NCBI GenBank assembly: GCA_020637055.1
Contig: JACJWR010000001.1
Span: 101,237-165,236, forward strand
DNA: 64,000 nt
Reading direction: 5' to 3'
Source: Actinomycetota bacterium
GTDB lineage: Bacteria; Actinomycetota; Actinomycetes; S36-B12; UBA10799
The notes beneath the pieces are model-generated. The model did not search any database and was not told where the DNA came from. It worked only from the letters and a program-made list of their open reading frames with translations. The position numbers were made by a program, and so were the translations under genes. Below, in pieces: positions 8,359 through 34,552 of this stretch; positions within the stretch are counted from its first letter, which is position 1, and the number at the start of each line of letters is the position of its first letter.

Positions 8359-9554
8359 GGCAGATCCTCCGCATCGACGGGCGGAGCGGGGATCGGCTTT
8401 CCGCTCGCCCCCACGCTGCGGTAGACCTCGGTGATCCGCTCGATCCACTGTGCTTCGGTGTAGCGCTCATCGAAGACTTCCCGACACCTGCGACGCAACT
8501 CATCGCCGCCAGCCTCGACCCAGGCCATCGCCGCCGCCAGGCTCGCGGCGTCCACCCGACCGTCGGCGACGGTGATTCCCATCGCAACCCCGTCGGAGAT
8601 CAACTGCGCAGCATGAGGACTGTTCAGACTCACCACGATGGGAAGTCCCGCCTCGAGCGCTTCGACGATCACCAGCGGCATCGCCGATTCAGGCGCCAGA
8701 CTGGTGAACACCAGCCCGCGGTAGGTGGGCAGCGATTCGCGCAGCGCCATCGGTGGTAGTTGCCCGCGCAGGTGCACCCGGGGACCGGCAAGCTCGGCCA
8801 ATTCGTCGCGCAGCGGACCGTCGCCGACTAGGTCGAGCCGGACGTTGGCAGGCCACCCGCGGACGAGTTCGACGAATCCCTTCTCGGCGCGCAGCCGACC
8901 CACCGCCAGCCACTGGGAATCGTCGGGCATCGCACTGGCCGCTGCGTGCACCTGCGTCACGCCGTTCGGAACCAGCCGGAGCCGTCCGGTGCCCACCCCG
9001 TAGCGGGCGAAGGTGTCGCGGGCGAACGGTGAGAGCACCACCAGGGCGTCGCTGCGGGCGATAAGCGGATTCACCTCGGTGCCCATCGTGTTGCGCAACG
9101 CGATCGGAGTGCTGGCAACCCGCGATTCCCGGTAGCAGGCATGCTCCACCGCCGACCACGGTTTGCCGTCCGGACAGTCGGTGCACAGCCTACCGTCGCG
9201 GAAGAGCAGCCCGTTGGCGCAGATCGGCCGGAAGTTGTGCAGGGTGTGCACAATCGGCCCGGGCCATCGGCGCATCCAGTGCAGGCCGATGTTGGGCACC
9301 GTGTTGTGGATGTGGACCACGTCCGGGGCGAACTGCCGCAGCCGCGGGGCCGGATCGGGCCCGAAACTGGTGATGGTGCGCCAGGCGGCACGCAGTTTGT
9401 AGCCCGGCAGATGCTGTTCGTCGTCGGTGTGGCGACCCAGCAGCAGCACGTCATGCCCGGCCGCTCCGAGTGCTTCGCTCTGCGCCTCCACCACGACGTT
9501 CTCGCCACTGGACTGATCAGAGGCGTAGAAGCTGTGCAGCAGCGCGATTCGCAC
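8355..9554 (-). CDS. GT4 glycosyltransferase with Cys-rich insert
   Basis: VRIALLHSFY...SGENVVVE N-terminus; C-terminal FTSLAPESAMPLVIVEALEAGLPIV (E-x7-E); insert HNFRPICANGLLFRDGRLCTDCPDG...HAC. Start GTG 9554 (or 9563), just after the rmlC stop at 9565. Confidence 0.85.
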   Translation of the reverse strand: MRIALLHSFYASDQSSGENVVVEAQSEALGAAGHDVLLLGRHTDDEQHLPGYKLRAAWRTITSFGPDPAPRLRQFAPDVVHIHNTVPNIGLHWMRRWPGPIVHTLHNFRPICANGLLFRDGRLCTDCPDGKPWSAVEHACYRESRVASTPIALRNTMGTEVNPLIARSDALVVLSPFARDTFARYGVGTGRLRLVPNGVTQVHAAASAMPDDSQWLAVGRLRAEKGFVELVRGWPANVRLDLVGDGPLRDELAELAGPRVHLRGQLPPMALRESLPTYRGLVFTSLAPESAMPLVIVEALEAGLPIVVSLNSPHAAQLISDGVAMGITVADGRVDAASLAAAMAWVEAGGDELRRRCREVFDERYTEAQWIERITEVYRSVGASGKPIPAPPVDAEDLP

Positions 9555-9564
9555 CCGAAGGACC

Positions 9565-10176
9565 TTACCCGGCCTCGCCGGCGAGACCGGCGCGGAACGC
9601 CCGGCAGGCCTCGTAGTCCGGCAGCAGACCCGCGGCCGCCGCCTCCGCCAGGCTGGGCGCCGCATCGTCCTTCGCCGACAACGAGCACTCACCGAGGTCG
9701 AACGGCCAGGCGATACCGATCTCGGAGTCGAACGGGTAAATCTCCCGCTCGCCGGTGGGGTTGTAGGGCTCGCTGCAGAGGTAGGCGACCGTGGAACCGT
9801 CTTCGAGTGCTGCGAATCCGTGTCCGAGGCCTTCGGAGAGGTACACCGCGCGCCGGTCCTTGGTGTCGAGCAGCACGGTCTCCCACATGCCGTAGGTGGG
9901 CGATCCGACGCGGATGTCGACGATCACATCCACCACCGCGCCTGCCAGGCAGGTGACGTACTTCGCCTGACCCGGCGGGACGTCGGCGTAGTGGATGCCG
10001 CGGACCGTGCCCTTGGTCGACACCGAGCAGTTGGCCTGGGCGAGGTGCAGCGGGTGCCCGACTGCCTCGACGAAGGTCTCCTCCTTGAACCACTCGAGGA
10101 ACAACCCGCGCGGGTCGCCGTGCTGCTTCGGGGTGACGACCCAGGCGCCTTCGATACTCAACGGGGTGATCTCCAT
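9565..10176 (-). CDS. rmlC: dTDP-4-dehydrorhamnose 3,5-epimerase
   Basis: DPRGLFLEWF, RGIHYADVPPGQAKYVTC, YLSEGLGHGF cupin motifs. Confidence 0.93.
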   Translation of the reverse strand: MEITPLSIEGAWVVTPKQHGDPRGLFLEWFKEETFVEAVGHPLHLAQANCSVSTKGTVRGIHYADVPPGQAKYVTCLAGAVVDVIVDIRVGSPTYGMWETVLLDTKDRRAVYLSEGLGHGFAALEDGSTVAYLCSEPYNPTGEREIYPFDSEIGIAWPFDLGECSLSAKDDAAPSLAEAAAAGLLPDYEACRAFRAGLAGEAG

Positions 10177-10182
10177 AGCCCA

Positions 10183-10188
10183 ACGCTA
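10183..10188 (-). promoter_or_regulatory. -10-like TAGCGT 6 nt upstream of rmlC ATG (leaderless candidate)
   Basis: Minus strand reads cccgaTAGCGTtgggctATG; no RBS-like purine tract. Confidence 0.4.
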
Positions 10189-10221
10189 TCGGGCGCCGAT
10201 GCATCGAATCGGAGTTCCCCC

Positions 10222-10333
10222 GGCCCACTGCGGTGGCGATGGCCCCGCTTGGCTGGGGCGACCGACAGTGGGCACCTGCGGGCTGCTTGTTTGCCTTCAC
10301 GCCGGCGCGGGGCCATCGCCACCTCCGTGGGCC
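10222..10333 (+). repeat. Long-loop hairpin element, copy A
   Basis: Perfect 17-bp arms GGTGGCGATGGCCCCGC (10232-10248) / GCGGGGCCATCGCCACC (10307-10323), outer 7-bp GGCCCAC/GTGGGCC across a 3x3 bubble, 58-nt core 10249-10306. Confidence 0.8.
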
Positions 10334-10378
10334 TTGCTCCAGCGGGCGCCACCTCGGCGGGCTCGGGTCTGGCGGACC

Positions 10379-10496
10379 GTGCCGGGGGAGTAGGGGGCCG
10401 GCGCCGACGTAAAGGCGAAAAGCGCACGCCGCAGCTGCCCACGGACGAACGCCCCAGTCAAGCCGGCCCCCTACTCCCCCGGCACCACCGTGGGCC
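10379..10496 (-). repeat. Long-loop hairpin element, copy B (inverted relative to A)
   Basis: Perfect 24-bp arms GTGCCGGGGGAGTAGGGGGCCGGC (10379-10402) / reverse complement (10462-10485). The 59-nt core, reverse-complemented, matches the core of A at about 45 of 59 aligned positions by eye. Shares a GGCCCACGGNGGTG-type flank. Confidence 0.8.
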
Positions 10497-10511
10497 CCTG
10501 CCGCCCAGGCA

Positions 10512-10528
10512 CCGCCCGAGGCGGGCGG
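10512..10528 (-). terminator. Small GC stem-loop abutting the stop of the priming transferase gene
   Basis: CCGCCC (10512-10517) pairs with GGGCGG (10523-10528), 5-nt loop, 1 nt from stop 10530-10532. Confidence 0.35.
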
Positions 10529-10529
10529 G

Positions 10530-11942
10530 TCAGTAGGCGCCGCGGCCGGTGATCACGGCCTTGAGGGTCCGCAGCACGATGATCGCGTCCAGCGGCAACG
10601 ACCAGTTCTCGACGTAGTAGAGGTCGAGCATCACCGACTGCTCCCAGTCGAGATCCGACCTGCCCGAGACTTGCCACAGGCCGGTCATGCCAGGTTTCGC
10701 CAGCAGTCGCCGGGTCGCCACATCGTCGTAGCGCTGCACGTCGTCGAGCGGGTGCGGCCGCGGACCGATCAGGCTCATCTGGCCCCACCAGACGTTGAAC
10801 AGCTGTGGCAACTCGTCCAGCGAGAAGCGCCGCAACCAGTGGCCCACCCCGGTGACGCGAGGGTCGCGGGTCATCTTGAACGTCGCGCCGGAGCCGCCGT
10901 GTTCGGCCCGCAACTCCTCTCGCCGGGAATCGGCGTCGACGACCATGGTGCGGAACTTGAAGCACTCGAAGGTGGTGCCGCCGGCCCCGGCCCGGGTCTG
11001 CATGAAGAACACCGGACCCGGGCTGGTCAGTTTGATCAGCGCCGCGAAGATCCCCAACGGAATCGCCAGGGCGATCAACAGCAGCGACGAGCCGATCAAG
11101 TCGATGGCGCGTTTGATGACTCGGGCCGGCCCGGAGAACTTGGGCATCTCGACCCGCACCAGGGCCATCCCGTTGATCGGTTCGATACTGAGCCGCGGTC
11201 CGGCGATGTTCGCGATCTGCGGACTCACCAACAGGGAAAGGTCCTGATCCTCCATCGCCCAGCCGAGCCGTCGGGGCCAGGCTGGATCCTCGTGCTGTGC
11301 GGGGGCGTAGACGATGGTGTCGGCGTCGAGGTCGAGAGCGGCCTTCACCACGACCACCGGATCCGGATCTGGCGCGTCGGTGAGATCCCAACTGCCGACC
11401 TGCTCCATCAGCCCGCCGGACCGGGCGAACTGCTTCTCAAGCTGGGGGTACTGCGCCTGCGCTGCCACTACGAACACCCGATGCAGCGGATCGCCGCGCT
11501 GCAACCTGCGGTGCAGCACATTGCGCATCAGGGATCGATCCGCGAGCAGGAAGAGCGTCCCGACCACGGCGCTGAAGAACAGGTATCGCCTGCCGAACTG
11601 GGTTCCGGTGATGTAGGCCAGTGACATCGTCAGCGCCACGGTCCACAGACTCGCCAGCAGGACACGCCGATACTCCTCGGCACCACCGCCGAGGATCGTG
11701 GTCGCGCGGGTCTGCATCTGCCACAACATCAACGGCCACAAGACCATCAGCGACACGATCATGAACATCCGCGGGCCGTCGCTGGCCGGGCCCTCGTGGC
11801 CGATGTCGAGCACAACTCCCAGCCCCAGGGCCAGCGCGATCGCCACCAAGTCGGCCACCACGACGAGGCGGGAGTGGTTGCGCTCCTCGAGCACCACTCG
11901 GGCACGACCCACCAGATCTTGGGCGCGGCTGTTGAAGCTCAT
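10530..11942 (-). CDS. Polyprenyl glycosylphosphotransferase (WbaP/exopolysaccharide priming sugar transferase)
   Basis: C-terminal LIGPRPHPL...KPGMTGLWQVSGRSDL bacterial sugar-transferase domain, N-terminal TM helices. Start ATG 11942 (MSFNSRAQDL), 19 nt after the UXS stop; the ORF-track 63-aa extension overlaps UXS out of frame. Confidence 0.9.
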   Translation of the reverse strand: MSFNSRAQDLVGRARVVLEERNHSRLVVVADLVAIALALGLGVVLDIGHEGPASDGPRMFMIVSLMVLWPLMLWQMQTRATTILGGGAEEYRRVLLASLWTVALTMSLAYITGTQFGRRYLFFSAVVGTLFLLADRSLMRNVLHRRLQRGDPLHRVFVVAAQAQYPQLEKQFARSGGLMEQVGSWDLTDAPDPDPVVVVKAALDLDADTIVYAPAQHEDPAWPRRLGWAMEDQDLSLLVSPQIANIAGPRLSIEPINGMALVRVEMPKFSGPARVIKRAIDLIGSSLLLIALAIPLGIFAALIKLTSPGPVFFMQTRAGAGGTTFECFKFRTMVVDADSRREELRAEHGGSGATFKMTRDPRVTGVGHWLRRFSLDELPQLFNVWWGQMSLIGPRPHPLDDVQRYDDVATRRLLAKPGMTGLWQVSGRSDLDWEQSVMLDLYYVENWSLPLDAIIVLRTLKAVITGRGAY

Positions 11943-11961
11943 GCCCGGGCACCTGCACGAC

Positions 11962-12909
11962 TCACCCCAGGACTCCCGAGTCCCGGAACCACTCCACCGT
12001 CCGCGCCAAGCCGACGTCCAAGTGCACCTTCGGCTCCCACCCCAGGGTTTCCACCGCCCGGGTGATGTCGGGCTGGCGCTGTTTGGGGTCGTCGGCGGGC
12101 AGCGGCTCGTGCCGCACCTTGCGCCCGCCACCCACGAGGTCGGTCACCCGGGTGGCCAACTCCAGCATCGACATCTCGTTCGGGTTGCCCAGGTTGATCG
12201 GACCGGTCACCTCGTGCTCGGTGGCCATCATCCGAATCAGGCCCTCGACCAGATCGTCCACGTAGCAGAAAGACCTCGTCTGGGTGCCGTCGCCGTAGAC
12301 CGTCAGATCACGCCCCTGCAGCGCCTGGACGATGAAGTTGCTCACCACCCGCCCGTCGTCGGGCTGCATCCGCGGGCCGTAGGTGTTGAAGATCCGCACC
12401 ACCTTGATCGGCATGTCGTGCTGACGGCGGTAGTCGAAGAACAGCGTCTCGGCGCAGCGCTTGCCCTCGTCGTAGCAGGACCGCACGCCGATCGGGTTCA
12501 CGTTGCCCCAGTAGCTCTCATCCTGCGGGTGCACGGTCGGATCGCCGTAGACCTCGGACGTCGAGGAGAGCAGGATCTTCGCGCCCACACGCTTGGCCAG
12601 GCCCAGCATGTTGATCGAGCCGATCACCGACGTCTTCGTGGTCTGCACCGGATCGCGCTGGTAGAACACCGGCGATGCCGGACACGCCAGGTTGTAGATC
12701 TCGTCCACCTCGACGTACAGCGGAAAGGTGATGTCGTGGCGCATCAACTCGAACCTGGGATTGCTCAGCAGGTGGTGAATGTTGCGACGGGTGGACGAAT
12801 AGAAGTTGTCCACGCACAACACCTCGGCGCCCTCATCGAGCAACCGCTCGCACAGATGACTGCCGATGAATCCCGCACCACCAGTCACGAGGACACGCCT
12901 ATACGTCAC
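11962..12909 (-). CDS. UDP-glucuronate decarboxylase (UDP-xylose synthase)
   Basis: [47 protein letters not shown]: strong resemblance to the UXS/ArnA-decarboxylase SDR family. GTG start. Confidence 0.88.
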
Positions 12910-12916
12910 ACCGGCC

Positions 12917-12922
12917 AGTCTA
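12917..12922 (-). promoter_or_regulatory. -10-like TAGACT 7 nt upstream of UXS GTG (leaderless candidate)
   Basis: Minus strand reads ggtTAGACTggccggtGTG. Confidence 0.4.
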
Positions 12923-13073
12923 ACCCTGGGCCACCGGCGGACCCGCGCATTTGGGTCCCGGCGAAACCGGCGCCCCCCGACCCTGCCCGGGCGGCGGCGC
13001 CCGCCACCGCCGGAGCACCGTGATCCGCCGATAGGCTGATCCCCGAACCCCGACGGCTCGGCGAGGAGGTGCG

Positions 13074-14198
13074 GTGGACAGCATCGATGTGCTGATCGAC
13101 GACCAGATCTTCCTCATGCACGCCCGGGGCGGAATCTCACGCTACTTCGCCGAGCTGCTGCGGGAGTTCGACAGCCACCCCGAGTGGGGTATCAACGCCC
13201 TCAACAGCGTCCGCTACTCACCGAATCAGCACCTGCGGGAGGTTGATCCGAGTGTCCGGGACCTGCCGTTCCGGGAGATGTCGCGGCGCTGGAAGGTGGC
13301 CAAGCGCCTGGCGCGGTATCCATCGGCGGTGATCGCCTCCAGGATGGCGCCCGACGTCGTGCACTTCACCTACTACGACCCCCGGCGGCTGGACATCTTC
13401 CCGGGAGTGCCGAAGGTGGTGACGGTGCACGACATGGTGCCCGAACGGCTGCCGGCGGAACTCGTCGACGGTGACCCCCACCTGGCCAAGCGGGAGTACG
13501 TCGAGGCGGCCGACGCGATCGTCTGCGTCTCCGAGGCGACCCGCAACGATCTCTTCGAGGCGTGGGGGGAGATCACCGACAAGCCGGTGATCGTCACCGG
13601 CCATGGTGCGGCCGACCGGTTCAACCCCGGGGTGGCGCCGGCCGAACTCGGCTACCGCTACCTGCTGCACGTCGGCTCCCGCGATCACTACAAGAACTTC
13701 GGCCTGCTCATGACCTCCTACGCCGGCAGCGAAGCCCAATCGGCCGGGGTACGGCTGCTGGCCGTCGGCGGCGGCCCGCTCACCGCCGAGGAGCAGGAAC
13801 TCGCCACCACCCTCGGAATCGGCGACGACCTGGTGCAGTTGACCGCCTCCGAGGCCGACCTGCCGGGGATCTATCGCGGCGCGGAACTGTTCGTGTTCCC
13901 TTCGCTGCTGGAAGGATTCGGCATCCCGGTGCTGGAGGCGATGGCCACCGGAACTCCGGCCGTGCTCGCCGACACCCCGGTGTTCCGCGAGGTGGCCGGC
14001 GACGCCGCGGTCTTCTATCCACCGGAGGACCCGTGGGTGCTACGAGCCGAATTGAACCGCCTGCTCGGCGACGCCACCGCCCGCACCGAACTCGCCGCCG
14101 CAGGTGTGCGGCGGGCGGCTGACTTCTCCTGGCGCCGAACGGCGCTGGACACCGCCGAGTTGTATCGGGACCTGGTGGCCCGACGGAGCACAACGTGA
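13074..14198 (+). CDS. GT4 glycosyltransferase
   Basis: [26 protein letters not shown] (E-x7-E), [20 protein letters not shown] at 13063-13069, GTG start; TAGGCT -10-like at 13032-13037. Confidence 0.88.
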
Positions 14199-15082
14199 AC
14201 GAATCCGCGGGCGACGGGCCGTGGCTGTCGGTGGTGACGGTGGTGCGCAACGACGCCGACGCCCTGCGGCGCACGATCGACAGCGTCGCCACCCAGCAGA
14301 CCGACCTGCTCGAACATCTGATCGTGGACGGGGCCTCCACCGACGACACGCTGCCTATCGCCCGAGCCGCCGAATCCCACTCGCCCTGGCTGCGGGTGGT
14401 GAGCGCCGAAGACTCCGGGATCTACAACGCGATGAACTCCGGTATCGGCCTGGCACGCGGATCTCACCTGCTCTTCCTCAACGCCGGCGACGACTTCACC
14501 TCCCCGGGCGAGGTCGCCGCGGTGCACGAGGATTGGCGACGCGAGCGCTATGACTGGGGCCGCTATCGCGCACGATTCGTCGATGCCGCCCGCAACTCCA
14601 CCCGACCGCTGTCGTCGGCCGAGTTGGACGTCGACCGTTTCCTGCGTGGGGAGCAGGAGCGGTACCACCAGGGCGCGATCATGTCGAAATCGATGCTGGT
14701 GCAGTTGGGCGGATTCGACGAGCGCTATCGGATCGTGGCCGACTTCGACTTGATGAGGCGGGCGCTGTTGGCCGGCTACCGGCCGTGGATCAGCGAGCGG
14801 ATCATCACCGACTACGACGCGTCGGGCCTGTCGGCGGTGGCCTGGCGGCGGTCGTTGGCCGAGGAACACGCGGTGCGCTGCGCCGGGGCAGCCCCGGCGG
14901 TTCGCGCGTCGTCCACCTGGACCTACGCCCGCCGGGCGGCCGTGATCGCCACGAAACGTTCGCTGCGCCGGGGCGCCGAGCAAGTGCTCGGGAAGGAGCG
15001 GGTCAGCGCACTGCGCGGTGCCGATCTGGCCGCGGCGCCGGAAGGCGCGGAGAAGGCGGAGGGATCCCCGCATGGCCGGTAG
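14195..15082 (+). CDS. GT2 glycosyltransferase
   Basis: LSVVTVVRNDADAL...LIVDGASTDDT...IYNAMNSGI...FLNAGDDF. GTGA overlap with the preceding gene. Confidence 0.88.
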   Translation: MNESAGDGPWLSVVTVVRNDADALRRTIDSVATQQTDLLEHLIVDGASTDDTLPIARAAESHSPWLRVVSAEDSGIYNAMNSGIGLARGSHLLFLNAGDDFTSPGEVAAVHEDWRRERYDWGRYRARFVDAARNSTRPLSSAELDVDRFLRGEQERYHQGAIMSKSMLVQLGGFDERYRIVADFDLMRRALLAGYRPWISERIITDYDASGLSAVAWRRSLAEEHAVRCAGAAPAVRASSTWTYARRAAVIATKRSLRRGAEQVLGKERVSALRGADLAAAPEGAEKAEGSPHGR

Positions 15083-16922
15083 GACACGTGGCAAAGAGGT
15101 GGCCCGCAAAGTGCTCAACTGGCCCGGGGTGGGCCCCGCGGTCGGCCGTGCGGTGGGCCGCCTCGGACGAGCCAGCGGACGTGCGGCACCGGCCCTCGAC
15201 AGCGTCTACCGCCGGTTGCCGAGCAGCGCGGGACTGCCCTTCGGCGCCACCGTGGAATCCCAACGCCGAGCCCTGCTGAAGTACTACGCGAGGCTGGACC
15301 ACGACGTCGCGGCCGTGGCCTACCGGCCGCGCATCAGCATCGTGGTGCCCACCTACAGACCGGTCTACCGATACCTGCACGAGATGCTCGGCAGCATCGC
15401 GCTGCAGACCTACCCCGACTGGCAGCTGTGCATCGTGGACGACGCCTCCGGCGACCCGAATCTCACCAGGATCCTCGCCGGTTTCGCCGAGACCCACCCG
15501 GGCAAGGTGGCTTTCGCCACCCGAGCCGAGAACGGCCACATCGCCGCCACCAGCAACGACGCCCTGGCCCTCGCCGACGGCGACTACGTGGCCCTGCTCG
15601 ACCACGACGATCGGCTGTACCCCCATGCCCTGGCCGAGGTGGTGCTCGGGCTCAACGCCCACCGCAGCCGGGACGGTCGGTACCCCGCCGTGCTCTACAC
15701 CGACGAGCGGATGATCGACGAGGACGGCGCCCCGATCGGCGAGGTATGGCTGAAACCGGACTGGATGCCGTTGCTGCACCTGACCAGCAACTACACCAAC
15801 CACCTCACCGTGTACTCCCGTGACCTGCTCACCGAACTGGGCGGGTTCCGTTCCGGGTTCGACGGATCCCAGGACCACGACCTGATGCTGCGGGCCACCG
15901 AGGCCAGCGAACAGGCCGGGCTGCCGGTGGTGCACCTGCCGACGATCGCCTACCAGTGGCGCAGCCACCCCGGCTCGGTGGCGAAGGACCCGGGCGTGAA
16001 GTCCTATTCGATCGAACCCGCGATGCGGGCGGTCGCGCAGGCGTGTGAGCGGCGAGGGCGCCCGGCCAAAGTCTGGCGGGAACCGGGGATTGTGGCGAAC
16101 CGGATCGACTTCGCCGTCGCGGAGCCGGTCCCGCAGGTCGAGGTCGTGGTACTCGACGATCGGGCGGCCAGAACACCTGCGGTGGGGGCGGGCAGCTCCG
16201 ACCAGGTGGGCAGCTACCCCAACGCCGTGGTGCACCGCGTCACGGCCACCGCCGAGCACCCACCGGCCGAGGTGCTGCAAGCCGCGCTCGACAACTGCGA
16301 GGCGCCGTATCTGGTGGTGTTGAGCAGCGAACTCGTCCCGCAGCGCGACGACTGGATCATGGCGATGGTCAACCTCGCACAACTGCCGGAGGTGGGCGTG
16401 GTGGGCGGGCTGCTGCTGACTGCGGCCGGCGATGTGGCCGCCGCTGGCCTGATCGGCCTGGGCTCGGCCGGGACGGCGCCGGCGATGGCCGGGATGCCGC
16501 CCACCGAAGAGGTGTACCTGGCCTGGCCGGCCAGCATCCACGAGGTGCTCGCGGTGGATTCGGCCGCGATGATGGTCGACGTCGCCGCCGCCAGGTCCGC
16601 CGGCGGATTCACCGCACATCCGGAGTTCGGCTACTTCCACTACGGCACCGATCTCTGCCTGCGACTGCGCCAGGCGGGCCTGACCACGGTGTTCACCCCC
16701 TACGCCGAGTTCCGATTCACCGGCCCCGAGACCAGCCCGCAGGTCGACCTGGCCCAGCGCAGCGCTTTGGTGGCCCGCTGGGGGCACGTGCTGGCCGCGG
16801 ATCCCTACTTCAACCCGGGGTTGGCGCGATCGCCGCAGTTCCGGGTGGACCCCACGCTGACACTGCCGGAGGTGCCGCCGGTCGTGTTCGACTCCTGGTT
16901 GGCCGACGGCCGGATCGGCTGA
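15072..16922 (+). CDS. Two-domain GT2 glycosyltransferase
   Basis: ISIVVPTYRPVYRYL...CIVDDASGDP...LLDHDDRL (domain 1); second GT2-like half VEVVVLDD...LVVLSSELVP...DLCLRLRQAG. Start set to ATG 15072 (11-nt overlap with the preceding gene); ORF-track start 15018 is also possible. Confidence 0.8.
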   Translation: MAGRTRGKEVARKVLNWPGVGPAVGRAVGRLGRASGRAAPALDSVYRRLPSSAGLPFGATVESQRRALLKYYARLDHDVAAVAYRPRISIVVPTYRPVYRYLHEMLGSIALQTYPDWQLCIVDDASGDPNLTRILAGFAETHPGKVAFATRAENGHIAATSNDALALADGDYVALLDHDDRLYPHALAEVVLGLNAHRSRDGRYPAVLYTDERMIDEDGAPIGEVWLKPDWMPLLHLTSNYTNHLTVYSRDLLTELGGFRSGFDGSQDHDLMLRATEASEQAGLPVVHLPTIAYQWRSHPGSVAKDPGVKSYSIEPAMRAVAQACERRGRPAKVWREPGIVANRIDFAVAEPVPQVEVVVLDDRAARTPAVGAGSSDQVGSYPNAVVHRVTATAEHPPAEVLQAALDNCEAPYLVVLSSELVPQRDDWIMAMVNLAQLPEVGVVGGLLLTAAGDVAAAGLIGLGSAGTAPAMAGMPPTEEVYLAWPASIHEVLAVDSAAMMVDVAAARSAGGFTAHPEFGYFHYGTDLCLRLRQAGLTTVFTPYAEFRFTGPETSPQVDLAQRSALVARWGHVLAADPYFNPGLARSPQFRVDPTLTLPEVPPVVFDSWLADGRIG

Positions 16923-16934
16923 GCGCCCCGGGGT

Positions 16935-17651
16935 TCACCGCAGGTACGCGTCGCAGGCTTCGTGGCCCTGCTCGATACCGGTCTCGGTCGCCTGCCGCCG
17001 CTGGCTCGGGGTGCCGTGGTGCTGCGGATTGTCGAAGGCAAAGTCGCCGGACGCGAACGCGTCCCGCGCTGCGGCCTCCTCGTTGCCCCCCATCTCCGCC
17101 ACGATCGCGCCGGAGATGCAATCGGCGAACAGTTCGGTCTTGACCACGGTCTCGGACTCGTCGGGCCGGTAGCCGCGCTGCGCCTCCCAGGCATGGCCCA
17201 ACTCGTGGGTGGTGATGGCCAACGCGGCACCGTTCTCCTTGCCGTATCGATCCTGCCCGGCGAGGAAGTTCAGATCCAGGTACACGGTGTTGTCGCCGGC
17301 GCAGTAGAAGGCGTTTCCGGACGTGAACGGGTAGCGTCCGCAGCCGGTCATCACCCCGCCGAACGTCTCTCCGAGCGGGATCGTGCGCAGTTCCGGTGCC
17401 ACGAAGTCCGGCCACCACCCCTGGATCACGGCGACGGCAGCCGCGAGATCCTCGGTGACCACCTGCTCGAAATCCGCGGAGTCCGCTGCGGCGGTCGATG
17501 ATGCACCCGTGCTGGCGTCGGTGGCCGCGGGCGCATCAGTCGTCTCGGCGGTGGCCGAGGTTTGCGGGTCTTCGCCGGACTGCGCCTGGCAGCCGCCGAC
17601 GGCCAGGACGGCCGCAACGGCGACGATGCCGAGGCTTGACGCGCGTCGCAT
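16935..17651 (-). CDS. Lipoprotein, putative neutral zinc metallopeptidase (YpfJ-like)
   Basis: Signal/lipobox VLAVGGC, HExxH in ITTHELGHAW, FYCAGDNTVYLD as in the Zn_peptidase family. Confidence 0.75.
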   Translation of the reverse strand: MRRASSLGIVAVAAVLAVGGCQAQSGEDPQTSATAETTDAPAATDASTGASSTAAADSADFEQVVTEDLAAAVAVIQGWWPDFVAPELRTIPLGETFGGVMTGCGRYPFTSGNAFYCAGDNTVYLDLNFLAGQDRYGKENGAALAITTHELGHAWEAQRGYRPDESETVVKTELFADCISGAIVAEMGGNEEAAARDAFASGDFAFDNPQHHGTPSQRRQATETGIEQGHEACDAYLR

Positions 17652-17654
17652 GGC

Positions 17655-18446
17655 TCAGGAACAGACGACCGTGTCGATCTGCTCGACGAGGAACGAGGCG
17701 GTTTGATCCGGATAGTCGTACTCGTCGGCGATCTGGGTCGCGAGTCGGGCTTGGGTGGTACCCCGGTCGAGTTCGGCGCACACCGCGTTGGCGAAGGTGT
17801 TGGCCTGCTCATCGCTGAAGTCGGAGTCCGAGACGCCGATGATGGTGCGCAGCATCAGCGGCGTGTCCACGAGGTAATCCACGTTCTCCAGCACCGGCTC
17901 GCCTTGCGGGCACATCACCTCCACGGCCGCGGTGATGACGGCTTCGTCGATGGTCGTGTCGGCAGCAGCTGCCTGGTCGTCCCCGAAGAACGACGCGAGG
18001 TAGTCCTGCAAATCGGACACCAGCAGGTTGCTCAAGACCTCGACGCACGAGACCGCACCGGCGTAGTAGACGTCGGACTCTTTGAACCCACCGAGCGCGG
18101 GGTCGTAGTTGATGGCCGACTGCACCATCTCGCGGCCTTTGGGGGCGTACTCCACCCAGGCGTATTGATAGGCCCGACCGGAATCGACCGGAAAACTGCC
18201 GAGCAGCGGATCGATGTTGCCCGGGTCCTGCACGGGTTTCAGCGGCGGCAGGTAGGGCAACGAACCGGCGGCGACCGCCGAGCCCGAGGCACTCGCCGAC
18301 CCGCTCGGCGAGGCGGTCGGCGAGGTCGGCGCGCTCGCGGACGTCGCACTTGGTGACGCGCTCGGATCGTCGCTGCCACCCAGCGAGAAACTGCACCCGC
18401 CGAGCATCAAGGCGCTCACGGCGGTGAGGGCGAGAACGCGCTTCAT
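17655..18446 (-). CDS. Lipoprotein with Ser/Ala/Pro-rich linker and Cys-containing C-terminal domain
   Basis: MKRVLALTAVSALMLGGC lipobox (start moved to ATG 18446); four further Cys; stop is 3 nt from the start of the metallopeptidase gene. Confidence 0.7.
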   Translation of the reverse strand: MKRVLALTAVSALMLGGCSFSLGGSDDPSASPSATSASAPTSPTASPSGSASASGSAVAAGSLPYLPPLKPVQDPGNIDPLLGSFPVDSGRAYQYAWVEYAPKGREMVQSAINYDPALGGFKESDVYYAGAVSCVEVLSNLLVSDLQDYLASFFGDDQAAAADTTIDEAVITAAVEVMCPQGEPVLENVDYLVDTPLMLRTIIGVSDSDFSDEQANTFANAVCAELDRGTTQARLATQIADEYDYPDQTASFLVEQIDTVVCS

Positions 18447-18472
18447 GTCCACCTCCATCAGTCCGTCGTAAC

Positions 18473-18841
18473 TCAACCTGCGTCTGCGCGGAGCCAGTCC
18501 CACGCGTCGGCCGGGTCGGAGAAGTACTTCACCTCGCGGGCGTAGAACGGCTTGGCCAGCACCGCCAGCGCCTCATCTGGCAGCGAATCCCCCACGATCG
18601 CCATCTTCGTGATCTTGCCGTGGAATTCCTTGCCGAAGGCGAGGTCCGCCCCCCAGGCGCTCGCCTTCTCCCAGCGGAAGTCGCGCATGTCGCAGAGCAA
18701 CTCCACGTGGCCGAACTCGGCCACGATGGACTCCAACTCGGGTGTCAACTCCGCGTAGTCGGACTTCTCCATGATCTTGGGGATGTGGAATCCCACCACA
18801 CTGCCGGAACTCTCGGGAAGTTTCTGCGCCATCGTCGTCAT
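18473..18841 (-). CDS. STAS/SpoIIAA-like (DUF3478-type) protein
   Basis: LPESSGSVVGFHI...GHVELLCDMRDFRWEKASAWGADLAFG...KMAIVGD pattern. Start ATG 18841 has GAGAG upstream; 18832 and 18877 are alternatives. Confidence 0.65.
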   Translation of the reverse strand: MTTMAQKLPESSGSVVGFHIPKIMEKSDYAELTPELESIVAEFGHVELLCDMRDFRWEKASAWGADLAFGKEFHGKITKMAIVGDSLPDEALAVLAKPFYAREVKYFSDPADAWDWLRADAG

Positions 18842-18935
18842 CCCACTCTCACAAACCAAGGTCATCGGCAACGACACGCTAGTGCAGTCGGGGTAGTGGC
18901 CACAACCGCAACGCCCCGAACGACAAACCTCCGCG

Positions 18936-20171
18936 CTAGCCAGCAGGGGTGGGTGCCGGATCTGCCCGCCGAGACTTCGCCCGGGTGGGTGTCTGCTCGG
19001 CGAGCATCACCGCCGAGGCGGCGATCACCGCCAACTGCACCACCAGGGCAGACCGCACGGGCAACGACAAGGAGGACTCCTGCCCGCCGAGCAGACAGAA
19101 GGTCACGAAGATCATCAGCGCCCACTGTCGATCCACGTGGACCGCCCGAACGGCGATCAACGCCATGATGAAGATCAGCCCGGCGAGCGAGAGCAGGCCG
19201 ATCAGTCCGGACTCACCGGTGGCCTGCATCATCATGTTGTGGGCCGTGTCGGGCTTCCATTCCAGGCCGCGGAACGCGAGGTAATCCTGCGTCAGGAACT
19301 CCGGACCGCGACCCACCAGCGGGTTGGCCTCGAACTCATCCTGCGCCAGGCCCCAGGGAATCCCCCGGCCGTTGAAGTCGTAGCCGACGGTCTCGGCGAT
19401 GATCACCGGCACTGTGATCATCAGGCCGGCCGCCGCGGCGATCGCCGGGGAGACCCAGTCCCAGCCCCGCCTGCCCAGCGGCAGCAGCGCGACGATCAGA
19501 CCGAATCCGGCGGCAATCGCGGAGGTCCGGCTCTGCGACCAGAACAACGCGATCGCCCCAGGCAGCACCACCCCGAACGCCAACAGGGCGAAACGCCGGC
19601 CGCTGCGGAAACCATCGGCGTAGTCGGTGATGATCTGCCGCACGCCGAGCACCACTGCCAGACCGGCGAAGATGCCCATGGTGTTGGGATGCGGCATCAC
19701 GCCCCGCAGTTGGTCGAGCCCGAATAGGGCTCGGTCCTGAGCGGGTTCGATGTAGATGCCATAGCTGAAGACGCCCAGTTCGGCCAGTGCGCCGGCAGCC
19801 AACCCGGCCCAACTCACCAACGCCAGCACGGTGATGGCCGACCATCGCACGGTGGGTGGCGGCAACAGCGTGGCAGCCCAGACCGAGACGCCGACGGTGA
19901 TCGCGAAGGCGAGCTGGCCGACGCTGACCGGTTGACCCCGCATCAGGCCCAGCACTCCAGGTACCGCCATTGCGACCATGGCGGCGAATCCCAGCCACAA
20001 CGCCCAGTCGGGCGGCCGATGGCGCAGCAGCACCCACACGCCCACAGCGGTCGATGCGACCGCCACCACCGCGTACCCCCAGCCGGGCAGACCGAGTCGG
20101 CCGAAGCCGAACGCGGCCGCGAGGAAGATCAATCCGAACCAGGCGGATCGAGTCGGCAGGGCAGCGGTCAT
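18936..20171 (-). CDS. O-antigen ligase / Wzy_C family membrane protein
   Basis: Polytopic, with WSQSRTSAIAAGFGLIV and a large loop ...PDTAHNMMMQATGESGLIGLL typical of Wzy_C. Start ATG 20171; the ORF-track 111-aa extension is shadow. Confidence 0.8.
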   Translation of the reverse strand: MTAALPTRSAWFGLIFLAAAFGFGRLGLPGWGYAVVAVASTAVGVWVLLRHRPPDWALWLGFAAMVAMAVPGVLGLMRGQPVSVGQLAFAITVGVSVWAATLLPPPTVRWSAITVLALVSWAGLAAGALAELGVFSYGIYIEPAQDRALFGLDQLRGVMPHPNTMGIFAGLAVVLGVRQIITDYADGFRSGRRFALLAFGVVLPGAIALFWSQSRTSAIAAGFGLIVALLPLGRRGWDWVSPAIAAAAGLMITVPVIIAETVGYDFNGRGIPWGLAQDEFEANPLVGRGPEFLTQDYLAFRGLEWKPDTAHNMMMQATGESGLIGLLSLAGLIFIMALIAVRAVHVDRQWALMIFVTFCLLGGQESSLSLPVRSALVVQLAVIAASAVMLAEQTPTRAKSRRADPAPTPAG

Positions 20172-20194
20172 GGGATCAGTGTAGGCAGCGATCC

Positions 20195-21388
20195 TCACAT
20201 ACCGTGGAGGTCGTCGGCGATGCCCAGATGCGGGTACACCGCACGGCGGGTCGCCTTGATGGCCCGGTCGTAGACATCCGAGGGGTTGATGCGGCCATCC
20301 CAGGGATCCAGGGACGGCACCCGGCCATCGGTCATGCGACCCGGGGCCGGGCGGCCCATGGTCTGGGAGACGAAACCGGCGAACGCCTCGGGAATCGCCG
20401 ACTCGGGCGCGATCGGGGAGCCGGTGGCGATCGCGGTCAAGTGGGTCCAGGCCCGCGGCACGACGTCCACCCACTCGTAGCCGCCTCCCCCGACCGCGAT
20501 CCACCTGCCGTCGGTGAGTTCGTGGGCGAGTTCGTGGACGCGTTCGTAGGAACGCCGCTGACCGTCGATGCTCAGCGCCAGGTGGGCCAGCGGGTCGTCG
20601 GCGTGGGAGTCACAGCCGTGCTGGGAGAAGATGATCTGCGGTTCGAAGGCCTCGAGCACGTCGGGCACGACCGCCTCGAACGCGCGCAGCCACTTGTCGT
20701 CGGCGGTGCCGGCGGGCAAGGCGACGTTGACGGCGCTGCCCTCGGCGCCCCGACCGCCCACCTCGTCCGGGAATCCGGTGCCCGGGAACAGCGTCCGGCC
20801 GGACTCGTGCAACGAGACGGTGAGCACCCTAGGGTCGGACCAGAAGATGTTCTGCACGCCATCACCGTGGTGAACGTCGACGTCGACGTAGGCGATCCGG
20901 GAGAACCCTTGGTCGAGTAGCCAGGCGATGGCCACAGCGATGTCGTTGTAGACGCAGAAACCACTGGCCGCCCCGCGGTGGGAGTGGTGCAGGCCCCCGG
21001 AGATGTTGATGCCGTGGACGTAGCTGCCGGAGGCGACCGCCGCGGCAGCCGCCATGGTGGCACCCGCGACGTGCAGACTGGCGTCGTGCATGCCGGGGAA
21101 CGCCGGCACGTCCTCGGTGCCGAGTCCACGGGAGGGATCGGCACTCCAGAGATCATGCGAGGCCAATTTCACGGCGTCGACGAAGTCGGGTGAATGCACC
21201 CGCAGGATGTCGGCCACGTCGGCCGCCTCGACCGGATCGAGCACGTCCACGTTGGGGGAATCGAGCAGGTGGAAGTCGCGCACCAACCGGTAGGTCAACT
21301 GCTGCCGGACCGGAGCCAGCGGGTGGCCGGGGCCGAAGTCGTAGGCCCGCAGCCGGTCGTCCCAGACGAACGCCGCCCGGCCGGTCAT
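20195..21388 (-). CDS. acuC: Histone deacetylase-family protein (acetoin utilization AcuC-like)
   Basis: GGLHHSHRGAASGFCVYND, YVDVDVHHGDGVQ, class I HDAC-like. Confidence 0.82.
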   Translation of the reverse strand: MTGRAAFVWDDRLRAYDFGPGHPLAPVRQQLTYRLVRDFHLLDSPNVDVLDPVEAADVADILRVHSPDFVDAVKLASHDLWSADPSRGLGTEDVPAFPGMHDASLHVAGATMAAAAAVASGSYVHGINISGGLHHSHRGAASGFCVYNDIAVAIAWLLDQGFSRIAYVDVDVHHGDGVQNIFWSDPRVLTVSLHESGRTLFPGTGFPDEVGGRGAEGSAVNVALPAGTADDKWLRAFEAVVPDVLEAFEPQIIFSQHGCDSHADDPLAHLALSIDGQRRSYERVHELAHELTDGRWIAVGGGGYEWVDVVPRAWTHLTAIATGSPIAPESAIPEAFAGFVSQTMGRPAPGRMTDGRVPSLDPWDGRINPSDVYDRAIKATRRAVYPHLGIADDLHGM

Positions 21389-30981: not shown

Positions 30982-31851
30982 ATGTCGAGCACCTCCGATC
31001 CGCACTCCCGACTGCTCGCCTGGTTTGCCGAGAACCGCCGGGATCTGCCGTGGCGGCAGTCATCGGACCCGTGGGGGGTGCTCGTCTCCGAGGTGATGTT
31101 GGCCCAGACTCCGGTGGCCCGAGTCGAGCCGGTGTGGCGGGCCTGGATGGATCGTTGGCCGGAGCCGGCCGATCTCGCCGCCGAGCCTGCGGCCGAGGCC
31201 ATCAAAGCCTGGGGCCGGCTCGGGTATCCACGCCGGGCTCTTCGACTGCACGAAGCCGCCGGGATCATCGTCGAACAGTACGGCGGCGAGGTGCCCGATG
31301 ACTACGACCGGCTCATCGCGCTGCCCGGGGTGGGCGACTACACCGCCGCCGCAGTGGTGAGTTTCGCCTTCGGCGGCCGGGCCACCGTGCTCGACGTCAA
31401 CGTCCGACGGTTCTACGCCCGCTACTTCGACGGCCAACCAGCTCCGGCCACCCACCTCACTGCGGCCGAACGTCGGCGGGCTGCGGAGATCGTGCCCGAC
31501 CGCGATCCGGCGCTTTGGGCTGGCGCCACCATGGAATTCGGCCAACTGGTCTGCACCGCAAGGGCACCGAAGTGCGAGTCATGTTGTGTGGCCGACGACT
31601 GCCGTTGGCTGGCCCGCGGACGCCCCGACTCCCACCTTCGCACCACCCGACCACAGGGTTTCGCCGGGACCGATCGGCAGGTCCGCGGACTGATCGTGGA
31701 CCTATTGCGCGCCGGTCCCGCGCCGCAGGAGGCCGTCGACCTGCTGTGGGCGGATCGAATCCAGTTGGCCCGGGCGCTGGACTCGCTGGTCGCCGACGGG
31801 TTGGTGGATCCGGTCGGGCAGGGGCGGTATGCGTTGCCGGGGGATGGTTGA
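30982..31851 (+). CDS. mutY: A/G-specific adenine DNA glycosylase
   Basis: LPWRQSSDPWGVLVSEVMLAQT, HhH-GPD LPGVGDYTAAAV, 4Fe-4S CTARAPKCESCCVADDC. Confidence 0.92.
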   Translation: MSSTSDPHSRLLAWFAENRRDLPWRQSSDPWGVLVSEVMLAQTPVARVEPVWRAWMDRWPEPADLAAEPAAEAIKAWGRLGYPRRALRLHEAAGIIVEQYGGEVPDDYDRLIALPGVGDYTAAAVVSFAFGGRATVLDVNVRRFYARYFDGQPAPATHLTAAERRRAAEIVPDRDPALWAGATMEFGQLVCTARAPKCESCCVADDCRWLARGRPDSHLRTTRPQGFAGTDRQVRGLIVDLLRAGPAPQEAVDLLWADRIQLARALDSLVADGLVDPVGQGRYALPGDG

Positions 31852-31864
31852 GGGGTCTCCCGGC

Positions 31865-31900
31865 ACCGGCGTCCCCGGTACCGGCGTCCCCGGTACCGGC
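31865..31900 (+). repeat. 15-nt tandem repeat ACCGGCGTCCCCGGT x2.4
   Basis: Exact units at 31865-31879 and 31880-31894, partial 31895-31900; each unit is itself a 5-bp/5-nt hairpin; junctions form CCGGTACCGG. Confidence 0.85.
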
Positions 31901-31904
31901 CTGC

Positions 31905-31992
31905 GGTGGTGGGGTGTGGTGGGGCCTCTTCCGTGGGTGGGCGGGGTGCGGGTCCGTGGGTTTTTCTGACGGCCCCACCACACCCCACCACC
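31905..31992 (+). repeat. Long-loop hairpin element, copy C
   Basis: Perfect 22-bp arms GGTGGTGGGGTGTGGTGGGGCC (31905-31926) / GGCCCCACCACACCCCACCACC (31971-31992), 44-nt core. The core shares TCCGTGGG, GCGGNGTGCG, TTTTC and ACGGC blocks with cores A/B. Confidence 0.75.
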
Positions 31993-32011
31993 TCCGGTCG
32001 GAAGCAGGGCG

Positions 32012-32037
32012 GTGGGTTTTCTGACGGCCCCACCACC
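32012..32037 (+). repeat. Partial duplicate of the 3' part of copy C
   Basis: GTGGGTTTTCTGACGGCCCCACCAC repeats 31956-31981 with one T fewer. Confidence 0.75.
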
Positions 32038-32050
32038 TGCGGGCGGGGGG

Positions 32051-34552
32051 CTAGTCCGTGGTGCCCTCGGCGACGATGGGTGGGACGTCGGCGATCTCGG
32101 CCTTGTCTTCGCCGGCGAAGGTGAACGTGGCGTCGTCGCCCTCGCCCTCCACACCGACCACGACGATCTGCCCTGGTCGGAGCTCGCCGAACAGGATCTT
32201 CTCGCTGAGGGCGTCTTCGATCTCCCGCTGGATGGTCCGCCGCAGTGGCCGGGCCCCGAGCACCGGGTCGTAGCCGCGCTGGGCGAGCAGTTCCTTGGCC
32301 GGCTGGGTCAACTCGATACCCATGTCCTTGTCCCGCAGGCGCTCATCGAGGCGGGCCAGCATGAGGTCGACGATCTCGACGATCTCCGCCTGGCTCAACT
32401 GGTGGAAGACGATGATGTCGTCGATCCGGTTGAGGAACTCGGGCCGGAAGTGCGCCTTCAACTCGTCGTTGACCTTCGCCTTCATGCGCTCATACGACGT
32501 CTTGGTGTCGTCGGCGTTGGCGAACCCGAGGTTCAGGCCCTTCGCGATGTCCCTGGTTCCCAGGTTCGTGGTCATGATGATCACGGTGTTCTTGAAGTCG
32601 ACCATGCGACCCTGTGAGTCGGTGAGTCGGCCGTCTTCAAGAATTTGCAGCAGCGAGTTGAAGATGTCCGGGTGGGCCTTCTCGACCTCGTCGAAGAGCA
32701 CCACCGAGAAGGGCTTGCGGCGCACCTTCTCGGTCAACTGGCCGCCCTCTTCATATCCGACGTAGCCGGGGGGCGAGCCGAACAGCCGCGACACCGTGTG
32801 CTTCTCGGAGTACTCGCTCATGTCCAAGGCGATGAGCGCGTCCTCGTCGCCGAAGAGGAACTCGGCGAGGGTCTTGCTCAACTCGGTCTTACCGACCCCG
32901 GAGGGTCCGGCGAAGATGAACGAGCCGCCGGGGCGCTTGGGATCCTTCAGACCGGCCCGGGTGCGGCGGATGGCCTGCGACAGTGCGTGGATCGCCTGCT
33001 CCTGCCCGATCACCCGCTTGTGGAGTTCGGTCTCCATGCGCAGCAGCCGCTGGGACTCCTCCTCGGTCAACTTGAACACCGGGATCCCGGTGGCCGTGGC
33101 GAGAACTTCCGCGATGAGTTCCTCATCCACTTCGGCGACGACGTCGAGGTCGCCGGCCTTCCACTCCTTCTCGCGCTCGGCCTTCTCGGCCATCAGCGTC
33201 TTCTCGTCGTCGCGCAGCCTGGCCGCCTTCTCGAAGTCCTGCGCATCGATCGCCGACTCCTTGTCTCGGCGCACATTGGCGATCCGGTCGTCGAACTCGC
33301 GCAGGTCCGGCGGCGCCGTCATGCGGCGGATCCGCAGTCGCGAACCGGCTTCGTCGATCAGATCGATGGCCTTGTCCGGCAGGTAGCGGTCGTTGATATA
33401 GCGGTCGGCCATGGTGGCAGCACCCACCAGCGCTGCATCGGTGATGGTCACCTTGTGGTGCGATTCGTAGCGGTCGCGCAGGCCCTTGAGGATCTCGATG
33501 GTGTGGGCGAGCGACGGCTCGTTGACCTGGATGGGCTGGAACCGACGTTCCAGCGCGGCGTCCTTCTCGACGTACTTGCGGTATTCGTCCAGCGTGGTCG
33601 CGCCGATGGTCTGCAGCTCGCCGCGAGCCAACATCGGCTTGAGGATGCTGGCGGCGTCGATGGCACCCTCGGCGGCACCGGCGCCCACCAGGGTGTGCAT
33701 CTCGTCGATGAACAGGATCACGTCGCCGCGTGTGCGGATCTCCTTGAGGACTTTCTTGAGCCGCTCCTCGAAGTCGCCGCGGTAGCGCGAACCGGCCACC
33801 AACGACCCGAGGTCGAGGGTGTACAGCTGCTTGTCCTTGAGGGTTTCCGGCACCTCGTTGCGCACGATCATCTGGGCCAGACCCTCGACCACCGCGGTCT
33901 TTCCCACGCCGGGCTCACCGATGAGCACCGGGTTGTTCTTGGTGCGGCGGCTGAGCACCTGCATGACCCGTTCGATCTCTTTCTCACGACCGATGACGGG
34001 ATCGAGTTTGCTCTCTCTTGCGGCCTGGGTGAGGTTGCGGCCGAACTGGTCGAGCACCAGCGAGGTGCTTGGCGTGCCCTCCTGCGGAGCACCTGCCGCC
34101 GCCGGTTCTTTGCCCTGGTAGCCCGCGAGCAATTGGATGACCTGCTGGCGCACCCGGTTGAGATCGGCGCCGAGTTTGACCAGCACCTGGGCGGCGACAC
34201 CTTCACCCTCGCGGATGAGCCCGAGCAGGATGTGCTCGGTGCCGATGTAGTTGTGTCCGAGTTGCAGCGCTTCCCGCAGGGAGAGTTCGAGCACCTTCTT
34301 GGCACGCGGGGTGAACGGGATGTGTCCGCTGGGTGCCTGCTGGCCCTGGCCGATGATCTCCTCGACCTGGCTGCGCACCGCCTCCAGCGAGATGCCCAAC
34401 GACTCCAGCGCCTTGGCCGCGACCCCTTCGCCCTCGTGAATCAGACCGAGCAGGATGTGTTCGGTGCCGATGTAGTTGTGGTTGAGCATGCGCGCCTCTT
34501 CCTGGGCGAGCACGACAACTCGGCGAGCGCGGTCGGTAAACCGTTCGAACAT
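32051..34552 (-). CDS. clpC: ATP-dependent Clp protease ATP-binding subunit ClpC
   Basis: [37 protein letters not shown], two AAA+ modules ([16 protein letters not shown]), UVR-like middle region. Confidence 0.97.

Follow-up and report, generated by a model that had tools for sequence, protein, structure and literature searches.

The 199-nt gap between the convergent genes mutY and clpC holds one complete copy of a large palindromic element, hairpin C (31888–32009), and one truncated tandem copy (32004–32046), preceded by a slippage-type array of 15-mers. The core of hairpin C is kept at the orthologous gap of related genomes, where it lies inverted, and other relatives lack the element altogether, a comparison that goes beyond the earlier note on this DNA. 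Two further hairpins of the window, by which we mean the whole analyzed stretch of 64,000 nucleotides, probably belong to the same family. As the best available explanation, we tentatively propose a lineage-specific extragenic palindromic element similar to REP/BIME elements, which would act as a two-sided hairpin at mRNA 3' ends, would be copied by local duplication and would carry a core under constraint.

The product of mutY matches the NCBIfam model TIGR01084 (mutY) with an E-value of 2.6e-55, a match that does not reach the curated cut-off, and Pfam assigns HhH-GPD to the called gene. The ClpC product contains the domains Clp_N, AAA, AAA_2 and ClpB_D2-small and shares 97–98% amino acid identity with its orthologues in the two relatives L080 and L082. 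The window is part of scaffold_1 (510 kb) of the metagenome-assembled actinobacterium WANG18-1_SAMN08389188, and an exact-protein search with ClpC found this scaffold only. The G+C content of the window is 65–72%, and a search of the window for tRNA and tmRNA genes gave none. The anatomy of the gap as described in the earlier note was confirmed throughout, every feature being found in its place. The features of the locus are as follows.

30982–31851, + strand: mutY-type adenine glycosylase gene, 289 aa, stop codon ending at 31851
31859–31900, no strand: tandem 15-mer CCCGGTACCGGCGTC, 2.8 copies with 96% matches and a score of 77 (TRF)
31888–31904, no strand: outer imperfect 5' stem of C, pairing with 31993–32009
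31905–31926, no strand: left arm GGTGGTGGGGTGTGGTGGGGCC of C, part of a perfect 22-bp inverted repeat
31927–31970, + strand: 44-nt core 'Y' of C, G-rich on the + strand, with a T5 run near its 3' end
31971–31992, no strand: right arm GGCCCCACCACACCCCACCACC of C, with the 3' stem-base motif CCACCTCCG at 31988–31996
31993–32009, no strand: outer imperfect 3' stem of C, 17 positions that, read pair by pair, give 11 Watson-Crick pairs, 1 G.T pair and 5 mismatches
32004–32046, + strand: truncated tandem second copy, made up of the core's 3' end, a right arm of reduced length and the variant base motif CCACCTGCG
32051–34552, − strand: ClpC-type Clp ATPase gene, 833 aa, stop codon at 32051–32053

The TRF score of the 15-mer array is the highest in the window. 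The 2.4 copies that had been placed at 31865–31900 are this same array read in a different register. Neighboring copies of the 15-mer create 10-bp palindromes (CCGGTACCGG) with loops of 5 nt, and the last copy contributes to the outer stem of hairpin C. The perfect inverted repeat of 22 bp around 44 nt is present as previously described (31905–31926/31971–31992) and lengthens imperfectly to arms of 39 nt with 85% agreement (31888–31926/31971–32009). According to our own estimate, perfect repeats of this kind are expected by chance about 1e-5 times in 64 kb. The stem-base motif CTGCGGTGG (31901–31909) begins in the outer 5' stem and enters the left arm, and within the Y core the motif TCCGTGGG occurs twice, 23 nt apart. 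The re-duplication of 25 nt that had been seen at 32012–32036 is real and longer than first thought: in a local alignment, 31948–31981 and 32004–32036 agree at 33 of 34 positions, the second copy having one T fewer, and the similarity resumes after a 10-nt deletion (31983–32001 versus 32028–32046, 89%), so that the second copy spans 32004–32046. The proposed alternative pairing of the left arm with the second half-arm also holds, with 11/11 positions pairing between 31916–31926 and 32026–32036. A reading of the core as part of a small open reading frame (31906–32124) was rejected because the frame runs antisense into clpC and the orientation of the core flips between genomes.

Two independent Logan contigs (L002 and L003) agree at every base with the tandem 15-mers and the left arm, and both stop within hairpin C. 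As the left half is thus reproduced in two independent assemblies, the repeat is not an assembly artefact. The locus breaks short-read assemblies in several samples: six short-read contigs from various samples and lineages (L002, L003, L081, L085, L086 and L087) end 36–125 nt past the mutY stop codon, in the repeat region. In contrast, the gap that contains the hairpins A and B is cleanly assembled in five samples. An identical copy of MutY is present in the Logan assemblies SRR20247615 and SRR20247611, and other proteins of the window (RmlC and a phosphatase) are identical in further Logan runs, for example SRR6747753, SRR26387399 and SRR12358675.

Among 185,579 GTDB species representatives no close relative was found; the best MutY matches reached at most 60% identity (Cellulomonas, Actinocrinis and unclassified Actinomycetes MAGs), and none of these genomes had the core. 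Relatives with MutY identities of 64–81%, all of them uncultured, were taken from a large protein collection and their contigs were fetched. In L080 (MutY ~70%), the gap is 301 nt long and contains two tandem units of 121 nt, each consisting of a small GC hairpin followed by a large hairpin. In L082 (MutY ~70%), a gap of 237 nt before clpC holds one large hairpin. In the latter genome, mutY is separated from the hairpin and clpC by an inserted pair of genes, one for a DNA methylase (PF00145) and one for an HNH endonuclease (10977–13408), which indicates that the gap accepts foreign insertions. The core of C is 73–87% identical over about 52 nt to the two cores of L080 and the core of L082. A profile built from the relatives only found core C of the window as its best match (E 2.6e-4) and the truncated copy as the second (E 0.012). 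In the same genomes, four-fold degenerate sites of clpC and mutY are 41–63% identical, with a random level of ~40%. The conservation of the core is thus far above the neutral expectation, and, as judged by this comparison, the Y core is under constraint while silent sites are near saturation. The arms of C, L080 and L082 are wholly different in each genome, and the pairing is kept in all of them.

The element of L080 and L082 has the opposite orientation to that of C in the window. The stem base is asymmetric, TGC standing opposite TYC, and A, C and L080 all show the same relation of this asymmetry to the core, with a looser one in L082. Because this relation is kept, the whole unit and not the loop alone must have been inverted, and an inversion of the loop through exchange between the arms was rejected since the stem asymmetry flips along with the core. 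In three other relatives the element is absent and the gap is bare, with 22 nt in L096 and L097, 51 nt in L098 and L099, and 14 nt in L100, the clpC stop codon following directly. One of these, L096, is the sister of L080 in the MutY tree, which makes the element accessory, with gain or loss having occurred inside the clade. The contigs of the closest relatives, L087 (MutY 80%) and L085 (74%), end within their own tandem-repeat regions. L087 shares 16 of 22 nt with the left arm of the window, and L085 has the base CTGCGGTGGTG in common with it. Tandem repeats directly after the mutY stop codon were seen as a 19-mer in two copies in L085 (2830–2936), as a 20-mer in about 2.5 copies in L087 (1556–1680) and as the 15-mer in 2.8 copies in the window. 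Each close relative has its own tandem repeat here; this position is hypervariable by slippage.

The family relationship to the two other hairpins of the window was gauged by HMM profiles, shuffle tests, motif tests and an energy scan. A covariance model was unsuited as a test of homology because long hairpins of any kind would score in it, and the stems of the 4–6 available copies do not allow a pair-by-pair alignment. The two hairpins lie in one gap.

10222–10333, + strand: hairpin A, 27-nt arms (93%) around a 58-nt core 'X', stem-base motifs as in C
10379–10485, − strand: hairpin B, in inverse orientation to A, with perfect arms of 24 bp and a core X of 59 nt

Homology between core A and the reverse complement of core B is clear (z = 10.9). 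Folding energies were scanned in sliding windows of 120 nt over about 154 kb, where they averaged −47.7 kcal/mol with an sd of 8.0 kcal/mol. In the window, values below −75.8 kcal/mol were reached by the hairpins A, B and C alone, with −83.8, −80.7 and −80.5 kcal/mol at 10216–10335, 10366–10485 and 31876–32010, respectively. No such outlier was found in the 10 kb past the right end of the window (L077). The count of three copies in 64 kb given in the earlier note is supported, as A, B and C are the only hairpins of this architecture in the window. Its statement that all three stand at gene 3' ends is true in part: C lies between convergent genes, and A and B lie between a sugar transferase gene and rmlC in co-directional order. 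A and B are located within a cluster for cell-wall polysaccharides (8355–20504) that contains Bac_transf, rmlC, several GT4/GT2 glycosyltransferases and a Wzy_C protein. Five strain-level contigs carry the A/B gap in nearly identical form, the differences being a single SNP and a single 1-nt deletion, both in arms: in L094 a C-to-T change in an arm of hairpin A gives a G.T or A.C mismatch, and in L091 the deletion lies in an arm of hairpin B. As these polymorphisms sit in the arms, the arms of A and B are not strictly maintained at the population level.

The kinship of C with A and B had originally been based on blocks shared in the same order between the cores. This argument proved weak in a shuffled-sequence control, in which C gave z = −0.8 against A and z = 2.3 against the reverse complement of B (50/2000 shuffles). 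HMM profiles of the C-type and the A/B-type cores did not find each other even in a search space of 300 nt. A test at the family level that included the orthologous C-type cores gave z = 2.0–3.1 with p between 0.003 and 0.04 depending on the scoring (3–39/1000 column shuffles). Taken by sequence, the resemblance of the C core to those of A and B is suggestive and marginal, and it is not established. The motif TCCGTGGG occurs five times in the window against 6.25 expected, which is no overall enrichment; four of the five occurrences lie inside the 474 nt of the two hairpin regions.

The family reading itself is probably right, on other grounds. The arms of C had been called unrelated to those of A and B, and this is wrong at the base of the stem, where A and C have CTGCGGTGG and CCACCTCCG in common: CTGCGGTGG stands on the 5' side at 10228 in A and 31901 in C, and CCACCTCCG on the 3' side at 10319 in A and 31988 in C. 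In both hairpins the two 9-mers pair throughout but for the same two positions, where TGC stands opposite TCC, and across the window and all fetched loci their combination was found only in A and C. A 9-mer in common between the arm regions of A and C has p = 0.016 on the left and p = 0.007 on the right in longest-common-substring shuffles and p = 0.013–0.019 empirically; the two sides are not independent tests, and the identical mismatch pattern adds evidence. A corresponding TGC/TTC internal loop is present in L080, turned towards the core in the same way, and the stem base of B is a version shorter by 3 nt (GGCCCAC-GGTGG). The stem-base 9-mers with their identical mismatches are thus better evidence for a family than the core blocks, and A, B and C probably make up one family. 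Its members would be characterized by a common stem base, which is complete in A and C and shorter in B, by an inner stem of 12–24 bp that pairs perfectly and differs from copy to copy, and by a G-rich core of 44–59 nt with a T-run.

Within about 74 kb of the source genome the element occurs three times, with each core type confined to a single gap. In the 1.4 Mb of fetched loci, of which ~115 kb are from carrier genomes, the Y core was found only in the mutY/clpC gap and its orthologues. The X core was found only in the A/B gap. Searched with an overly strict pattern of the Y core, JGI metagenomes gave one chance match, within a coding region of an unrelated contig of lower GC content, and viral contigs gave none. 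The blastn search of phages and plasmids yielded only two short chance matches to the 15-mer region. At the gathering thresholds, Rfam models had no match in the whole window; the best sub-threshold hit for the gap in E-value mode was C4 antisense RNA with 25.9 bits versus the required 45, and the others were mostly generic models of miRNA precursors with a few other families. Neither RAYT nor any other transposase gene was present among the neighboring genes looked at (within about 74 kb). Hairpins of a similar shape were observed in Cellulosimicrobium marinum (L018, 16996–17095) and Isoptericola hypogeus (L021, 16834–16936), with a perfect stem of 22 or 31 bp and a loop of 56 or 41 nt, respectively. 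The former follows a gene for an FGGY carbohydrate kinase, and the gene upstream of the latter has a similar C-terminal end and is probably an orthologue. The sequences of the two hairpins are unrelated to one another and to those of the window. Perfect hairpins with large loops may be widespread at 3' ends in actinobacteria.

Transcribed from either side, hairpin C has a predicted folding energy of about −75 to −83 kcal/mol. Owing to G.U pairs, the fold of the G-rich strand is 8–10 kcal/mol more stable than that of the C-rich strand in A, B, C and L080. No U-tract follows the stem of C on either strand, and a terminator scan found only a weak site of 5 pairs inside the core. As mycobacterial RNA polymerase did not terminate in vitro at hairpins without a U-tract (PMC3993855), a role of C as canonical intrinsic terminator is unlikely. 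Such terminators are GC-rich hairpins with a short loop and an immediate U-tract, unlike C with its 44-nt loop. Termination at C would therefore need Rho or another factor. The 44-nt loop has no self-fold, and the Y core yields only a weak consensus fold of −6.8 kcal/mol. When A is compared with the reverse complement of B, pairs of the X core have changed on both sides in a compensatory manner, one example being GC to AU. Core C contains a canonical G-quadruplex motif (31935–31960, GGG-T-GGG-C-GGGG-TGC-GGG...), defined by four tracts of at least three G with loops of 1–7 nt. Despite a G+C content of about 69%, only 7 such motifs are present in the window on both strands. Of the cores in relatives, the second of L080 (L080b) fits this definition, the first (L080a) needs a loop of 10 nt, and that of L082 has only three G3 tracts.

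Our preferred interpretation as a REP/BIME-like element is based on the intergenic location, the position at gene 3' ends, the arrangement as single element, tandem (L080) or inverted pair (A/B), and the variable presence. REP/BIME elements (also REPINs) of Enterobacteria and Pseudomonas are likewise extragenic imperfect palindromes that form stable hairpins at gene 3' ends or between convergent genes; they too occur singly, in tandem or in alternating orientation, and their copy number varies between relatives. In BIME-1, a conserved central linker lies between two inverted REPs. However, the stem of REPs is conserved among hundreds of copies, whereas only the 9-nt stem base and the core are kept here, with inner stems that show no relationship between A, B and C. 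The loop is also much larger, three copies are known in about 74 kb, and no RAYT was present among the neighbors looked at. Against our interpretation, about 74 kb of sequence gave no sign of dispersal beyond one gap per core type, the neighboring genes looked at included no RAYT or other transposase, and the loop is conserved while the inner stem varies between copies, which is the reverse of REPs.

The element can be described in four layers. Its outer stem is short and differs between copies; next comes a conserved stem base (5' C-TGC-GGTGG ... CCACC-TCC-G 3') in which two mismatches are fixed; the inner stem of 12–24 bp pairs perfectly and is again specific to each copy; and the fourth layer is the core of 44–59 nt. 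We propose that it was gained in the ancestor of part of the clade or was inserted more than once, and that it would since have been duplicated, inverted as a whole unit or deleted, depending on the lineage. Local duplication is visible in the truncated copy of C, in the two tandem 121-nt units of L080 and in the inverted pair A/B. In analogy to REP/BIME elements, we infer that change at the DNA level would proceed by slippage and by template switching between the arms. Template switching would homogenize the arms, so that they could stay perfectly Watson-Crick paired while their sequence drifts. Mobilization in trans would also be conceivable.

Every functional step at the level of the transcripts is likewise inferred. 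The mRNAs of mutY and of clpC would each carry a hairpin of about −80 kcal/mol at the 3' end, which would stop 3' exonucleases, shield the two transcript ends and assist factor-dependent termination. For E. coli, REPs were described as partly Rho-dependent terminators and mRNA stabilizers that correlate with higher expression of both convergent genes, and such a dual function as terminator and stabilizer of the 3' UTR has been proposed for REP/BIME elements (bioRxiv 10.64898/2026.03.23.713779). A purely structural role fails to explain the strong conservation of the core and of the TGC/TYC internal loop. The better fold of the G-rich strand, the compensatory changes between A and the reverse complement of B, and the G-quadruplex motif leave room for a sequence-specific partner.

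Two other kinds of known elements resemble hairpin C. The hairpin-only or "I-shaped" putative terminators of high-GC actinobacteria, and the hairpins that convergent genes share there, are also long GC-rich hairpins right after convergent stop codons without U-tract; relatives keep them in place although the sequence of the stem changes. Unlike in these, the loop of 44–59 nt is unstructured and yet conserved here, and motifs are common to unlinked loci. MITEs with regulatory cores, such as the Correia elements of Neisseria and the enterobacterial ERIC elements, are intergenic palindromes of about 100–150 nt in either orientation that form RNA hairpins and have a conserved center, as the C element does. 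However, their terminal inverted repeats are conserved and Correia elements additionally have a TA target duplication, neither of which is seen here. We describe the element as an extragenic palindromic repeat that is unusual in its conserved loop and stem base with a free inner stem.

An unlikely though substantial alternative to a REP/BIME-like hairpin is a sequence-specific structured element of RNA or single-stranded DNA, in which the stem merely presents the conserved loop and the internal loop to a dedicated partner; the core might be a C-rich loop like that of the actinobacterial 6C-type sRNA, or the site of a hairpin-specific nuclease or transposase. The conservation of the core far beyond silent sites, the complete difference of the stems between genomes with pairing always kept, the TGC/TYC internal loop that A, C and L080 all retain and the 8–10 kcal/mol gained through G.U pairs on the G-rich strand would all follow, and the compensatory changes in the X core point the same way, although 4–6 sequences are too few for covariation statistics. 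Against this, the element stands in either orientation relative to the flanking genes, which leaves no fixed transcript with a fixed strand; it is dispensable in close relatives, its perfect Watson-Crick arms are more typical of homogenization at the DNA level, and the consensus fold of the Y core is weak. In a related and still somewhat less likely version, the core, able to form a G-quadruplex in some copies, and the TGC/TYC loop on a stem that keeps its pairing and not its sequence would constitute a new class of structured nucleic-acid element. Purifying selection would maintain it because a dedicated partner recognizes it, for instance an RNA-binding regulator or a hairpin-specific enzyme of the HUH type, or because it obstructs transcription from both sides.

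That the elements are non-autonomous transposable elements (MITEs) which inserted independently and in either orientation into the same gap of different lineages appears improbable. In favor of this, the presence of the element is patchy, the whole unit including the stem asymmetry is found in the opposite orientation, the gap of L082 has taken in the methylase and HNH genes and is thus open to insertions, and the similarity between genomes could reflect recent spread instead of constraint. But direct reading of the sequence shows no target-site duplication around A or C, the terminal sequences with the outermost stem pairs are copy-specific, no second Y core was found in the 1.4 Mb of fetched loci, and JGI metagenomes, viral contigs, phages and plasmids gave nothing beyond chance. 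We give slightly less credit to an ordinary terminator hairpin specific to this locus, without any family, in which case the likeness to A and B would be due to base composition. The long perfect hairpins at gene 3' ends of L018 and L021 and the marginal core similarity are in line with it; the stem-base 9-mers of A and C with identical mismatches, the conservation across genomes of a loop without self-fold and the missing U-tract are not. Least of all do we expect an invertible DNA switch whose inverted repeats mediate flipping of the core. The opposite core orientation in the window and at the orthologous site of L080 and L082 is what such a switch would produce, yet the stem asymmetry flips together with the core, so that no exchange within the arms has taken place. 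In addition, 44 bp are very short for inversion by a recombinase, no recombinase gene was seen among the neighbors, and only a single orientation is present in L002 (for C, as far as the contigs reach) and in the five strain contigs of A/B.

How transcripts end in high-GC actinobacteria is still unsettled and canonical terminators are scarce there, and to our knowledge little is known about REP-like elements outside Proteobacteria. Owing to its conserved loop, free stem, inversion as a whole unit and clean presence or absence between close lineages, the C element is a compact natural test case for structural versus sequence-specific roles of extragenic palindromes. The stakes are modest, with three copies in an uncultured organism and a putative function.

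A second convergent gap of L080, between pgm and lsr2, contains a hairpin of 13 bp with a 4-nt loop, followed by the tandem 16-mer cgctcaggcgtgggcg in two copies (15640–15710). In the genome of the window, the pgm/lsr2 gap measures only 14 nt.
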